The translations under genes and the position numbers were made by a program. This document shows positions 1,104 to 63,877 of a stretch of DNA of 64,000 bases, in pieces. Origin of the DNA: Glaucostegus cemiculus (lineage: Eukaryota); NCBI GenBank assembly GCA_976551045.1, contig CDPCPM010000370.1:2852001-2916000 (forward strand). The letters run 5' to 3'. Position 1 is the stretch's first letter, and every line of letters begins with the position of its first letter. Under the pieces are notes generated by a model. It worked only from the letters and a program-made list of their open reading frames with translations, did not search any database and had not been told where the DNA came from.

Positions 1104-1120
1104 GCGCCATCTAGTGTGCG
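1104..1120 (-). promoter_or_regulatory. CTCF-like motif 25 bp beyond the RSS nonamer (representative)
   Basis: Minus strand reads CGCACACTAGATGGCGC, close to the CTCF core CCACYAGRKGGCRC. Same position at nearly all V segments. Confidence 0.75.
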
Positions 1121-1141
1121 CTCATTGTCACACCCACCGCC

Positions 1142-1180
1142 GGTTTTTGTCCAAACCCTCCATCTGCATGCACCACTGTG
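1142..1180 (-). promoter_or_regulatory. 23-RSS (representative; one follows each V, coordinates given in the V entries)
   Basis: CACAGTG, 23 nt, ACAAAAACC: the exact RAG consensus. Confidence 0.97.
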
Positions 1181-1612
1181 GGCTGCATGGCACAGAGGTA
1201 CACGGCGGAGTCCGACACAACAGCCCCGGAGATATAAAGGTGAGCTCTCTTGTCGTCTTTCTGCCAATCAGCGGTAAATCTCTGTGAACACGCTGGAGCC
1301 CGTTCAATCTTTCCTGAGCTTGACACCCTCAGAAAATATTCTGGAGATTCCCCACGATGCTGACTGTACCAAAAAATATATGCACGAGCTGTTGTGTAAC
1401 TACAGTTCAGTGTTAAGCTCTGTCCTTCCTCGGCCTTTAACTCGGGAGGGTCTTGGGTCACTGAGTCTTCCCCGCTCATTCCTGCAATAAAGGATAAAAT
1501 GCATAAATAGACCGAGCCTGCATTGACCGTAAGGGAAACACACAGGATGATTTGGCAGAGACTCACCGGGCAGCACGGCCAATATCACCAGCAAGAAACA
1601 GAGGGAACACAT
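1181..1612 (-). CDS. TRAV: TCR alpha/delta-type V segment V1 (subgroup A), intact. Leader 1567-1612, intron 1482-1566, V exon 1181-1481
   Basis: Leader MCSLCFLLVILAVLP and a GT-AG intron. V domain DSVTQ..LNCSY..IFWYSQ..RF..SDSAVYLCA. RSS heptamer CACAGTG at 1174-1180, 23-nt spacer, nonamer ACAAAAACC at 1142-1150. Confidence 0.92.
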
Positions 1613-2383
1613 GGTTTCTGGCTTCGGGCTAGATCGACAGGCAGATCACTTTCAAGAAGTTCATTCCTCTTGATTGATATTGCAGAATGAGGTCAGATCA
1701 GCGGCACTTTTCACTTTGTCTCAGACAGAGGGCGTTGCCCTGCTGAAGATTTGGCTGGTCGACGACTAAGCCTCCCGGAGAACCAATCAGAATGGGCACT
1801 GACCCAGTGCGTGTGTCTCTCTGGTTGTTCCCTCTTCTATTTATATGCTGTTCTCTCTTTCTCTTCTCTCTCACACTCTCTCGCTATCTCTATCGCTCTT
1901 TCTTTCTTTCTTCTGCTCTCCTTTCTGCCATCTCCGTTTCGCTCCACATTTTCCTCTCTCTGATTTTTCTCTTTCTCTCTTCTATAATCTCGCTCTGCCC
2001 TTCACTCACGTTTTATCGTCCTCGCAACTTGCAATCCCACATCTCACTTTACCTTGCCCAAACTCTATTACATGTCTCATGATCCATTTTGCTGAGTCAT
2101 GAACATAGATTTTAATGGGTCTCAGTCGCCCGCTCTCTTTCTTTCTCGCTAATTTCCGTTCCCTGTCCTGATATCTCCATTTCCTTCCTGTTTCCTCCCC
2201 TTTCTATCCTTCTTGTATCTGTCAGTTCCAGTCAGAAAAGGGTTCAGTTCAATTTGTCTGTTTTCCTTCATATTCATCGCCATCTCTCTCTTGTCCTCTT
2301 ATCCGCTTCTTTCTCTTTATCTTCTCCCTATCTGTCTAATTTCCACACACCCTCCCTCCTTACACCCTCACATCATCCAACCC

Positions 2384-2650
2384 CATATATCACTGTCTCA
2401 TGCGCAAATTCTACAACATCCTGCTAAATCATCAACTCTCACAAAGTTGATAGAAGAGCAAGCTCACAGAGAACCCCAATGCGGCACATTGGTACAAGAC
2501 TGGAGTCAGGATACTTCATATATCACTGTCTCATGCGCAAATTCTACAACATCCTGCTAAATCATCAACTCTCACAAAGTTGATAGAAGAGCAAGCTCAC
2601 AGAGAACCCCAATGCGGCACATTGGTACAAGACTGGAGTCAGGATACTTC
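2384..2650. repeat. Exact 133-bp tandem duplication spanning the left junction of the insertion
   Basis: 2384-2516 is repeated at 2517-2649. Confidence 0.9.
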
Positions 2651-2951
2651 CCCAGGACCAAAAGCGGGCAGCAGCTGGAAGGAAATATTGCCTCGGAGTT
2701 CTGAGTAGAAATCACAAACTGAATCTTCAAGCAGTAATAGAGAGCACAGGACTCGACGACTCTAAACAGCTAGGAGCCAAATTATACCCGAAGGTTGACT
2801 CTGGCAACTAGAGAACCCCAGGTACTTATGCTAGGCACCTGATGGGGCTCAGGTGTGTGTCATTATGCAATCAGTCCAGCATGGAATCCATGTGCTCTAC
2901 AACGAGGCATCTAAGGCGCCAAATCAAGGGCCAGTACTCAGAATCATGACA
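2570..2951. mobile_element. Solo LTR-like insertion (~382 bp) with 5-bp target-site duplication TCAAC
   Basis: Absent from the paralogous site (17879-17890, atcaac|atagat). Termini TCTCACA...CATGACA are a degenerate TG..CA pair. TCAAC lies at 2565-2569 and 2952-2956. Confidence 0.7.
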
Positions 2952-60560: not shown

Positions 60561-60992
60561 GGGTCCATAGCACAGAGATAAACCGCGGAATCCGATACCA
60601 GACCTTTGGAGATATTTAAATTAGCCATTTTGATGTTTTTCTGCAAAGCAGCAGTAAACCTTGCCGAGCATTCTGGAGACCGTTCCATAGTTCCTGAGCT
60701 GTAGAGCTTCATCAGGTATTGTGGACCTCCCTCTCGATGCTGAATATACCAAAAAATATTGCTATTGTCTATCGAGTAACTACAGTTCAGTATTATGGTC
60801 TGCCCTTCCTCAACCGTTAATTCAGGAGGGTCCTGGGTCACTGAATCTTTCCCACTTGTTTCTGCAATAAAAGATAGAATGTATGAACAGCCCGGCCTTG
60901 CATCTAACCCACGGGACACACACCGACCGTTTTCGCAGGGACTCACCGGGCAGCACAGCCAATATAATTAGTAACGAACAGGTGGAGCACAT
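60561..60992 (-). CDS. TRAV: V segment V21 (divergent subgroup), intact. Leader 60947-60992, V exon 60561-60861
   Basis: Leader MCSTCSLLIILAVLP; V includes LNCSYSIDNSNIFWYIQ..YLCAMDP. RSS heptamer at 60554-60560, 23 nt, nonamer at 60522-60530. Confidence 0.92.
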
Positions 60993-61472
60993 GGTGTCTG
61001 GCTTCAGGCTCGAATAAATCATTCAAGAATTTAAAACACTTCGAGAATGAGATCAGATCAGCGACACGTTCATTTTCAGTGTGGCCGGAGGCGTGGCCAC
61101 AGTAAAGGATTGGCTGATGAAAGAGAAATGTGCACCAATCAGAATGGGTTTTGGTTTTGATTGTCTCCCGNNNNNNNNNNNNNNNNNNNNNNNNNNNNNN
61201 NNNNNNNNNNNNNNNNNNNNNNNNNNNNNNNNNNNNNNNNNNNNNNNNNNNNNNNNNNNNNNNNNNNNNNNNNNNNNNNNNNNNNNNNNNNNNNNNNNNN
61301 NCCCACACACACGAACACATCTCTCTCTCTCAGAAACTTGTTTCTACTGTGTGCGATCCTCTTATATATGCACTAGTTTGCGTGTGCGCCCCTCCAGTAT
61401 TCCCGGCATGAGGCGCCCTCTAGTGAAAGGGTCGGTTTCTCTCCGGTTCAGCCGTCTCCCTGCAACAGTGTG

Positions 61473-61860
61473 GGCTCCATGGCACAGAGGTTCACGACGG
61501 AGTCTCACAACAGAGATGTTTCAACGAGGCATCCCTCTGACGTTCCACCAAGCAGCGGACAAACCTGCCGGGCATTCTGTAGACCTGTCCATCTTCCCTG
61601 AGCTATTTATTCCCATCAAGTATCCTGGAGATTAGCCGCGATGCTGAATGTACCAAACCGCATATCCACTGCCGCTTGTGTAACTGCAGTTCAGTGTTAT
61701 GGTCTGTACGTTAACACAGGAGGCTCCCGGATCACTAAATAGTCCCCACCCGTTCCTGCAATTTAGAACAGAATGTATAGACAGCCCGGACTTGCTTTCA
61801 CCCCACGGGACACACGCGGGGTAACTTCGCAGTGAATAACTGGGCAGCAGGGCCTTATTT
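61473..61860 (-). pseudogene. V pseudogene with deletions, stop codon and broken leader
   Basis: TLNCSYTSGSGYAVWYIQHRG followed by a stop. Heptamer at 61466-61472, degenerate nonamer at 61434-61442. Confidence 0.82.
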
Positions 61861-62758
61861 GTCTCCCCTACTCTTTGTATGTCGTTCTCTTTACCTAAAG
61901 GAGCCAAAACAAAAGGAGCACCAATCAGAATGCTCTTTTGTTCAATCTTCGGAGCCAGTCTACCAGCTCAAAATCTCTCTCCCTCTCTCTCTCCCTCTGT
62001 CTATCCCATTCACCCTATCTTCTTTCTGTCGCTTTCTTTCTCTCTCTCCCTCTCTCCTCTCTCTCTCTCTCTCCTCCTAACCTTCCGAACCATCTGTCGC
62101 TAACCATTCCAAAATCTGACATTAATATTCATTAATCTATATCTGTAATACTGTAATATAGAGTAGATTATAACCATTTGACGCAACAACATTGAGTCTT
62201 CCGGCATCCCATTTGTTATTCACTGTCAAAACGAAAGTGATAACGTCAATGAAAATGAATCATCCATTTATCCCCCATTCTTTATTTTCCAACGGGGCGA
62301 CAATCTTCCATCGGCGCCAATAGACTGCATCTGAAATGTTTACCTCTACTGTAACCTTTAGTGTGACACCTGATCTAATGTTTGCTGGAATTGTGAAGGC
62401 CCTGTGTCTACAGTTTCTCCTTGATCCTCAATATTACACCTCAATGATACCTACAGCGTGGTCAAAGACGAATCGTGCCAACGTTGTCCACGGGGACAAA
62501 GGTCATCGATGTGTTTGGGCAATGTTTTGCCAAGTTCATACTTGTACGTAGAGGTCCGAAGTAAATTCAGCAATGATTCCTCAAGCTTGGACGACTTTCT
62601 TGTTGCGTGCCGCATTCTAAAATAGGACAAGTGACCCTCGCTGATTTATGTGTGCGTCCCTTATGGTTTCTCCGATAAGCGCGCCCTCTAGTGAGCGGTT
62701 TTTGCAGTATCCCGGGCCCGGTTTTTGTCCGGGACCGCCATCACCCGGCAACAGTGTG

Positions 62759-63190
62759 GGCTCCACGGCACAGAGGTACACGGCGGACTCCGATACAAGA
62801 GCTTGGGAGATATTTAAATGAACCATCTTGATGTCTTTCAGCCAAGCAGCGGTAAACCTCACCGGGCATTCTGGAGCCCGTTCCATCTTTTCTGCACTTA
62901 AGAGCTTTAGCAGGTATTGTGGACCCCTGCCTCGATGTTGAATGTACCAATAAATATATCGAATGGTTGTTGAGTAACTACAGTTCAGCATTATGGTCTG
63001 TCCTTCCTCGGCCATTAATTCAGGAGGGTCCTGGGTCACTGAATCTTTCCCACTCGTTCCTGCAATAAAAGAAAGAATGTATGAACAGCCCGGCCTTGCA
63101 TCTAACCCACGGGACACACAACGGCCGTTTTCGCCGAGACTCACCGGACAGCACGGCCAATATAATCAGCAGGAAACAGAGGGAACACAT
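62759..63190 (-). CDS. TRAV: V segment V23 (divergent subgroup, V21-like), intact. Leader 63145-63190, V exon 62759-63059
   Basis: Intact frame LNCSYSTTIRYIYWYIQ..YLCAVEP. RSS heptamer at 62752-62758, 23 nt, nonamer at 62720-62728. Confidence 0.92.
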
Positions 63191-63877
63191 GGTGACTGGT
63201 TTCAGCCTCGATAAAATATTTCAAAAATTTAACACCACTTCACCGATGTTGGAGAATGAGATCAGATCAGCGGTAGCTTCATTTTGTGTGAGACTGGGGG
63301 CGTTGCCCTGCTAAAGGATTGGTTGTTAAATGAAAACTGAGCACCAGTCAGAATGGGACTGGGTTCACTTTGTCTCTCTGTCTCTTCATATTCCCGACAC
63401 TTTCACACTCACACACTATCTCTCCCTCTCACACACACATCTCCCACTCACTCTCACAGGCACAGCTCTCTCTCGCACACTCTCGCCTCTGCTACATTGA
63501 CACACACACATTTCCCCATCACACACACACACACATCTCTCTCTTATGCACACATCTATCTCTTTCACACACATATTCCCGCTCCACACACACACATATT
63601 TCTCTCGCTTCTGTCCATCAACGTTCCCAACAGTGAAATGATGTTAGAGACAGAATGGAAAGGGGACATGAGGTGTCACAGAAAATGTGCACCTCCAGCA
63701 AGGAGTTGTATTCAGGAACTGTTCCTCAATCTCGGGCGAGTGCTTTATTTACTGAGTGCGCTCCTCTTATGTCGGAAGTGGATTGCGCGTGCGCTCCTGC
63801 AGGTTACCCGGCAAAAGGCGCCCTCTAGTGAAATGGGCGGTTTCTGTCTGCAACCGCCATCTCCCTGCCACAGCGTG

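Follow-up and report, generated by a model that had tools for sequence, protein, structure and literature searches.

Positions 2,852,001-2,916,000 of a 3.07-Mb contig (CDPCPM010000370.1, here C370) in the 2.85-Gb genome of the cartilaginous fish Glaucostegus cemiculus hold an array of T cell receptor (TCR) variable (V) genes, most of which carry a CTCF-like motif just past the recombination signal sequence (RSS). This stretch of 64,000 nucleotides is the window analyzed here. Its 25 V-exon matches all lie on the minus strand and come with RSSs having 23-bp spacers (23-RSSs). The first V gene shows the complete cassette, on the minus strand and in the order promoter, leader exon (1567..1612, spliced frame open), intron, TCR-alpha-like V exon (1181..1481), 23-RSS (1142..1180; CACAGTG, 23 bp and ACAAAAACC), 25-bp spacer and CTCF motif. 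The genes thus have the V-set exon, split leader and 3' 23-RSS of V genes. The V gene with the motif at 16534..16546 encodes a protein (P0001) that is a V-set domain by Pfam and has TCR alpha chains as its best matches among solved structures. A search of representative sequences, in which 6 of the 150 matches were looked up, gave little skate (57%) and elephant shark (53%) as its nearest named relatives, and a search of a 5.8-billion-sequence set returned no homologue.

The V genes are in cis with, and on the same strand as, a 12-RSS J-alpha array of ~95 segments (61.7-158.5 kb of contig C370), C-alpha (53.5-56.2 kb), C-delta (196-198 kb), J-delta (210-229 kb) and D-delta (near 229.5 kb). C-alpha, C-delta and C-beta were not among the matches listed when the genome was searched with Pfam C1-set; these were placed by tblastn (two hit proteins being used for C-alpha and C-delta) and a motif scan. 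As the J and C segments occupy the other end of the contig, the V genes of the window are J-distal, ~2.7 Mb from J-alpha. Immunoglobulin heavy chain (IgH)-type V-D-J miniclusters are interspersed between the TCR segments; IgH-like V segments or V-D-J miniclusters were seen at 237,656; 260,400; 381,549 and 1,325,538. Embedded IgH segments and this overall layout match published descriptions of the TCR alpha/delta complex in elasmobranchs (PMC12227049), and the window represents the part of such a locus farthest from J.

The motif scans used a reconstruction of the CTCF matrix JASPAR MA0139.1, not the official file, from which all bit scores and p values given here derive. At p ≤ 1e-5 the window has 28 minus-strand and no plus-strand matches (50 dinucleotide shuffles gave 0.8 and 0.3), which is the single-strand bias that the original prediction had expected of such a scan; at p ≤ 1e-4 there are 49 and 14 (shuffles, 9.9 and 4.1). 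The published IUPAC consensus CCASYAGRKGGCRS (PMC6746451, legend) gave 26 minus and 0 plus matches with at most one mismatch and 47 versus 8 with at most two. Of the 25 V exons of the window, 22 are accompanied by a CTCF core on the V strand. All 22 minus-strand motifs listed originally were present, 21 at the exact coordinate and one displaced by 1 bp (9287-9299, not 9286).

Sixteen of the 17 V genes having an open frame and a recognizable 23-RSS carry the motif 23-27 bp past the nonamer, at 9.7-18.4 bits. All V-linked motifs are on the minus strand. In intact V genes the distance from nonamer to motif is 25 bp at 1104..1116 (16.4 bits), 6882..6894 (14.2), 12987..12999 (16.4), 16534..16546 (16.4), 19275..19287 (11.1), 26443..26455 (13.9), 34367..34379 (18.4), 44141..44153 (17.4), 48721..48733 (16.4) and 53277..53289 (16.4), 27 bp at 30935..30947 (12.6), 23 bp at 40541..40553 (14.5) and 26 bp at 62681..62693 (14.5). 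Less regular V genes have it at 4315..4327 (24 bp, 13.5 bits; open frame, GC donor, weak RSS), 9287..9299 (25 bp, 9.7; heptamer broken, AAC), 36894..36906 (25 bp, 11.1; frameshifted) and 58979..58991 (25 bp, 14.7; open frame, GTG start). The spacing of about 25 bp claimed at the outset therefore stands for intact V genes, as a range of 23-27 bp, but fails in four pseudogenes, where it is 8 bp at 56727..56739 (a spacer deletion; 13.7 bits), 61413..61425 (14.4) and 63818..63830 (12.4) and ~15 bp at 57800..57812 (decayed, 6.6). It also fails at 22892..22904, where the motif is present (14.5 bits) and the V frame is open, but the nonamer has been deleted. Six short N stretches in the window overlap none of these motifs, and further copies may hide there.

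Other CTCF-like words lie nearby. A recurring minus-strand motif of up to 19.2 bits (window 57210-57222 and contig 2,930,959; 2,935,681; 2,967,364) is found ~480 bp below the pseudogene class with 8-bp spacing, with no V or RSS recognized beside it. The 23-bp spacer of the RSS often holds a weaker word, AGATGGCG, of at most 9.8 bits (for example, at window 62733-62751), which is conserved no better than the spacer average.

The window also has 27 cassettes lacking a V exon, which were located via their promoter and not via the motif. In these V-less cassettes a V promoter and a leader stub of ~18 nt are fused to the post-nonamer spacer and motif; hence, one deletion took the end of the leader, the intron, the V exon and the RSS. 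All are on the minus strand. Seventeen score at least 10 bits: 254..311 (14.4 bits, promoter upstream), 5951..6006 (13.0), 10869..10923 (13.0), 12158..12214 (14.5), 14495..14549 (14.8), 18418..18473 (10.2), 24381..24435 (15.5), 25571..25627 (16.2), 30118..30174 (15.3), 32443..32497 (17.7), 33517..33573 (16.2), 35942..35996 (13.4), 42045..42099 (11.1), 43267..43323 (16.2), 47886..47943 (11.9), 52451..52507 (15.3) and 54785..54839 (14.8). Two score 8.9 bits (3489..3529 and 8471..8526), and eight have decayed below 6 bits: 5736..5790 (-2.5), 15632..15677 (5.4), 20798..20853 (1.8), 22077..22133 (3.7), 38418..38472 (3.3), 39729..39785 (1.8), 46655..46709 (-4.1) and 51230..51283 (-0.2). Together with the 22 V-linked motifs, these 27 make up an earlier count of about 50 co-oriented motifs. 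We rejected the use of that count as independent support: the copies are tandem duplicates of one cassette and their co-orientation is a single event, so neither strand bias nor spacing within the window is independent evidence.

Given this non-independence, conservation was tested in 59 aligned intact V genes of the clade to which the window genes belong, which were picked by reading frame and RSS, not by motif, from 2.32-2.39 and 2.85-3.02 Mb of contig C370. The measure was parsimony changes per column. The heptamer (2.14) and nonamer (1.89) are slow and the RSS-to-motif spacer fast (8.38), as are the next 30 bp downstream of the motif (8.93) and four-fold codon sites (7.83). Motif positions 5-17 gave 3.38 and positions 9-17 gave 1.78; positions 1-4 are not conserved (6.75). 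The mean motif score is 12.4 bits, with 48 of the 59 at 10 bits or more, versus -6.0 bits when neutral drift at the rate of the flanks was simulated along the tree of these genes, and none of 300 runs reached the observed value. The variation that does occur follows the CTCF matrix (position 8, C in 22 and T in 31; position 12, G in 44 and T in 15; position 13, G in 59/59). The CpG at positions 15-16 is retained in 55/59 with no TG or CA, and seven other CpG columns show 6-17 decays. In members of the same clade 0.5 Mb away the spacer has been replaced and the motif still lies at +24-26. Judged by these rates, the V-linked motif is under purifying selection beyond what duplication gives. Contigs from two other organisms or samples align across RSS, spacer and motif at ~82-97% identity, several of the alignments stopping exactly at the motif edge; these were not counted as cross-species conservation.

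Dead genes and V-less cassettes behave differently. Among 25 of the 27 V-less cassettes that were aligned the signal is weak, with 5, 2 and 41 of 300 neutral runs matching the three measures, and their motifs appear to be mostly passengers or at best weakly kept. In the 12 pseudogenes with 8-bp spacing the core (1.0 changes per column) is no slower than the exon (1.07). From 32 clade pseudogenes, 13 older ones were chosen by eye as having the full RSS-spacer layout, and these gave 0.69 changes per column in the core, 2.94 in the RSS and 1.86 in other columns (p 0.0006 and 0.002, column permutation); in the remaining 19, whose ends are shortened or truncated, the motif is only partly retained. 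At 2,652,000-2,851,000 of contig C370, dead clade members are interspersed among intact V genes of the LQLSDS family in both orientations; in these dead members the RSS changes faster than the flanks and the CTCF core is retained.

A genome-wide search for a nonamer followed after 15-45 bp by a CTCF core gave 78 matches, and the reversed control none; 28 of the matches are on contig C370, six on contig C41 and many others in one repeat. Contig C41 is the TCR-beta locus, with D, J and C at 1.138-1.218 Mb; sequence patterns for D-beta and J-beta missed this D-J region, and direct reading of the contig end found it. A motif was called at 10 bits or more and 20-45 bp from the nonamer, and its occurrence was compared with a quick tree built from 90 columns of 179 V rows, of which 177 are distinct. 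The motif is present in 51/65 rows of one V-alpha clade (SH-aLRT 95) and 11/12 rows of one V-beta clade (SH-aLRT 99), and in 0/102 of the other V rows of the tree, including 37 of the neighboring LQLSDS family. The distance is 23-27 bp in 49 of 50 motif-bearing V-alpha clade rows and 40 bp in all 11 V-beta rows. The V-beta copies have a full CCAC core and reach 21 bits, and in that clade (n=13) the core changes at 0.67 per column versus 2.22 for the spacer. None of three IgH V genes, found in ten 20-kb stretches near C1 domains, had the motif. The motif is a clade-specific trait, not a locus-wide one. The V-alpha, V-beta and mammalian VH motifs, whose spacings all differ, may reflect shared ancestry or convergence. 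Four V-beta genes of another family (contig C41:944,851; 951,430; 983,041; 1,003,573) carry a motif of 12-15 bits closer to the nonamer, 7-14 bp past it.

Between 2.852 and 3.040 Mb of contig C370, 77 sites of at least 12 bits face J (minus) and five face away (plus). An opposed 16.7-bit motif, overlapped by one of 13.3 bits, is found 450 bp upstream (5') of the first J-alpha and is one of four non-repeat plus-strand sites of at least 16 bits in the first 400 kb; motifs of the TGGCCACAAGAGGAC form belong to an interspersed repeat and were excluded from these anchor counts. A J-facing 19.2-bit motif lies 11 kb 5' of D-delta. The original prediction placed the presumed J region on the side to which the motifs point, and proposed J segments on the opposite side, or lack of a convergent anchor, as refuting results. 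J-alpha proved to lie on the same contig in that direction, 2.7 Mb away, with the opposed motif (known as a motif only) 5' of it, and the orientation tests were thus passed. The TCR-beta V array is set between opposed D-beta segments, that of the full D-J-C region (1,137,834-1,218,135, plus) and a mirror D-beta at C41:334 (minus), which suggests a duplicated, inverted D-J-C beyond the left end of the contig. A plus-strand block of motif-bearing V-beta genes (at least 10 matches at 902-934 kb) faces the right-hand D-J-C, a minus-strand block (at least six matches at 121-145 kb) faces the mirror D-beta, and each D-beta segment has opposed motifs, scoring 14.8-16.9 bits, 2-6 kb on its 5' side. 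On contig C370 at 272,420-316,252, J-proximal V genes have J-facing motifs ~775 bp promoter-side of the RSS (14.7 and 18.8 bits), the mouse Tcra pattern.

RSS-associated CTCF elements are described for mouse and human IgH VH genes, and VH-region sites also for chimpanzee and rabbit (Ciccone 2019, PMC6746451); in that account the mouse RSS-associated sites are D-proximal. At mouse VH5-2/VH81X, the RSS-associated CTCF-binding element (CBE) is described as impeding extrusion and raising VH use 50-fold (PMC10293834). As portrayed in PMC6746451, those elements and the ones here share a CTCF core that follows the V nonamer on its 3' side at a constant spacing, a motif as conserved as the RSS beside a spacer that is not, the orientation of V transcription, restriction to one V clade and a core whose 3' end holds a CpG. 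The differences are that the present elements belong to TCR alpha and beta of a cartilaginous fish, are candidate sites known as motifs, lack the C at position 4, and persist in a large number of pseudogenes; in the same account, mouse 7183/Q52 genes that are non-functional lack the element as a rule. The distance from the consensus start to the nonamer, given there as 17-19 bp in mouse and 19 or 48 bp in human, is ~22 bp in V-alpha and ~37 bp in V-beta.

The TCR loci of mouse offer a second comparison. In mouse Tcra/d, TEA is described as facing the V genes and INT1/2 as facing TEA, with V CTCF sites promoter-side, and 2 of 18 Tcrb sites near an RSS (PMC5859386, Table 2 for the site positions). 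The present locus resembles the Tcra/d arrangement of TEA CBE, INT1/INT2 and E-alpha CBE (PMC5859386, PMC7515734, as outlined there) in that the majority of motifs in the V region face J, with an opposed one just 5' of the first J-alpha and a strong J-facing one 5' of D-delta; here, the sites are known as motifs only. It likewise resembles the mouse Tcrb V CBEs and 5'PC/CBE1, as presented in PMC5859386 and PMC10772921, in having V motifs that face D-J and opposed motifs a few kb 5' of D-beta. In contrast to mouse Tcrb, a whole V-beta family has the motif at +40 bp, rather than 2 of 18 sites, and the V array is flanked by two opposed D-beta segments. Skate topologically associating domain borders have oriented CTCF motifs, and cartilaginous fish have the extrusion genes, according to PMC10115646. 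A literature search, which left subscription journals mostly outside its reach, found no report of RSS-adjacent CTCF sites in the TCR loci of cartilaginous fish or any other non-mammal, and "CTCF" occurs 0 times in the elasmobranch TCR alpha/delta paper (PMC12227049). By its sequence, the motif is real and maintained by selection, lies where the known mechanism would have it, and represents a variant of the RSS-associated CTCF element of mammalian IgH.

We therefore consider it reasonably probable that the motif of the V-alpha clade, selectively conserved 23-27 bp past the nonamer and mostly facing J-alpha, binds CTCF and stalls cohesin so that the adjoining RSS dwells at the J-alpha recombination center. 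CTCF would bind the motif past each distal V RSS, cohesin extrusion anchored at the J-alpha end would pause at these sites, and the RSS adjoining a paused site would be offered to RAG, as for mouse VH5-2. The V-less cassettes stem from deletion of the V exon and RSS, followed by copying along with the array. That CTCF occupies the motifs, that they loop to the TEA-like site and that V usage gains from this is extrapolated from mouse work. The kind of chromatin looping that assists V(D)J recombination at mammalian antibody loci is thus likely also at work in cartilaginous-fish TCR.

Several observations weigh against this interpretation. The matrix used for scoring was a reconstruction, and the analysis covered ~1.1 Mb of a contig of 3.07 Mb. 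Matrix position 4 has its consensus C in 2/59 intact clade V genes (T or A in 54/59), and CTCF affinity may therefore be modest. The motif is lacking from the intact window V gene ending at 60566 (RSS and remnant at 60486..60560, minus strand), in which its 5' half is deleted (-0.9 bits), and from a J-proximal clade member at contig 335,978. An inverted member at contig 1,999,251 has a 16.1-bit motif that faces away from J-alpha, and its neighbor has one of 7.8 bits. In the V-less copies positions 9-17 are not clearly slower than the flanks (41/300 simulations as low). The clade occupies 2.0-3.04 Mb and J-alpha ends at 0.158 Mb, so these elements are J-distal, not (D)J-proximal as those of mouse IgH, and the J-proximal V genes that were read do not have the motif; in human, too, the elements do not follow the (D)J-proximal placement. 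Lastly, the motif-less V-alpha families (the 37 LQLSDS rows) and most V-beta genes have open frames and good RSSs and occur in both orientations, which is not what linear RAG scanning predicts. As inverted V genes are common here, anchoring plus diffusion is a fair rival to strict linear scanning. The IgH-like architecture first proposed for a non-mammalian TCR V cluster consequently survives as to TCR V identity, orientation toward J and selection, but the array is J-distal and the trait clade-specific, the V-less copies are under weak constraint at best, and the motif of the inverted member points away from J-alpha.

The alternative that survives best is that these are real CTCF sites acting as general folding anchors, or as insulators between packed V promoters, with a nearness to the RSS that was inherited from the founding cassette and is itself irrelevant. 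We regard this as rather unlikely. It would fit the outliving of the RSS by the motif in the 13 older pseudogenes, the somewhat higher scores of V-less cassettes than drift predicts (the 5/300 and 2/300 measures) and the role of mouse Tcrb V CBEs as loop anchors for diffusion-based synapsis, as presented in PMC10772921; moreover, a 25-bp gap leaves little room for indels. Against it, the 23-27 bp distance persists in 49/50 clade rows despite a replaced spacer, the second clade is fixed at +40 bp, shortened spacings are mostly those of dead genes, and V-less cassettes show far less constraint than do the copies next to intact V genes.

It is improbable that the 13-mer instead binds another factor such as YY1, or serves RSS chromatin in some way that does not involve looping. 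The YY1 core resembles AGATGGCG, the position-4 C is missing in 57/59 and positions 1-4 are unconserved. However, 44/59 read GAGGG, not GATGG, at a position where CTCF accepts either T or G, the CCAC core is complete in the V-beta copies, and opposed CTCF motifs occur at mouse-like places. Most improbable of all is a chance CTCF-like word in the founding cassette that was copied passively and has no function, since, despite the single origin of all copies, the eight V-less copies below 6 bits and the unslowed core of the 8-bp pseudogene class, no neutral simulation of the intact V genes retained the motif, a 13-bp conserved block within diverged flanks is not what gene conversion would produce, and the same pattern recurs in a second clade at another locus; passive copying is largely refuted for the V-linked copies and plausible for the V-less ones.

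If CTCF and cohesin do present these RSSs to RAG, such control of V(D)J recombination would date to the oldest living lineage with RAG-based immunity, a dating based on copies in two TCR loci and on motifs at TEA-, INT- and 5'PC-like positions, and it would operate in TCR loci of translocon type in an animal that still has its IgH genes in miniclusters. The locus holds a natural comparison, its sister V genes including some that have the motif, some that lack it and some in which it is inverted. More tentatively, and with some doubt on our part, CTCF-guided delivery of V genes to RAG could be as old as jawed vertebrates and have been added to the RSS at least three times (mammalian VH, V-alpha at +25 and V-beta at +40), here letting the most distal V genes compete; dead V genes would then be CTCF-only modules, their RSSs purged faster than neutral, that serve neighboring families lacking sites.

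Two interspersed repeats carry CTCF words. In one, found on contigs C3, C65, C148, C277 and others, the CTCF core is preceded by a TGCAGTTCC word, which we take to resemble the upstream CTCF module; the second carries TGGCCACAAGAGGAC. Both may seed CTCF sites genome-wide. Just past the last V gene, at contig C370:3,059,507, one exon matches TROVE weakly (E 0.033, which misses the cut-off) and may be TEP1, a neighbor of the human TRA locus. Within the window, 2393-2649 is a perfect tandem duplication of ~128 bp.

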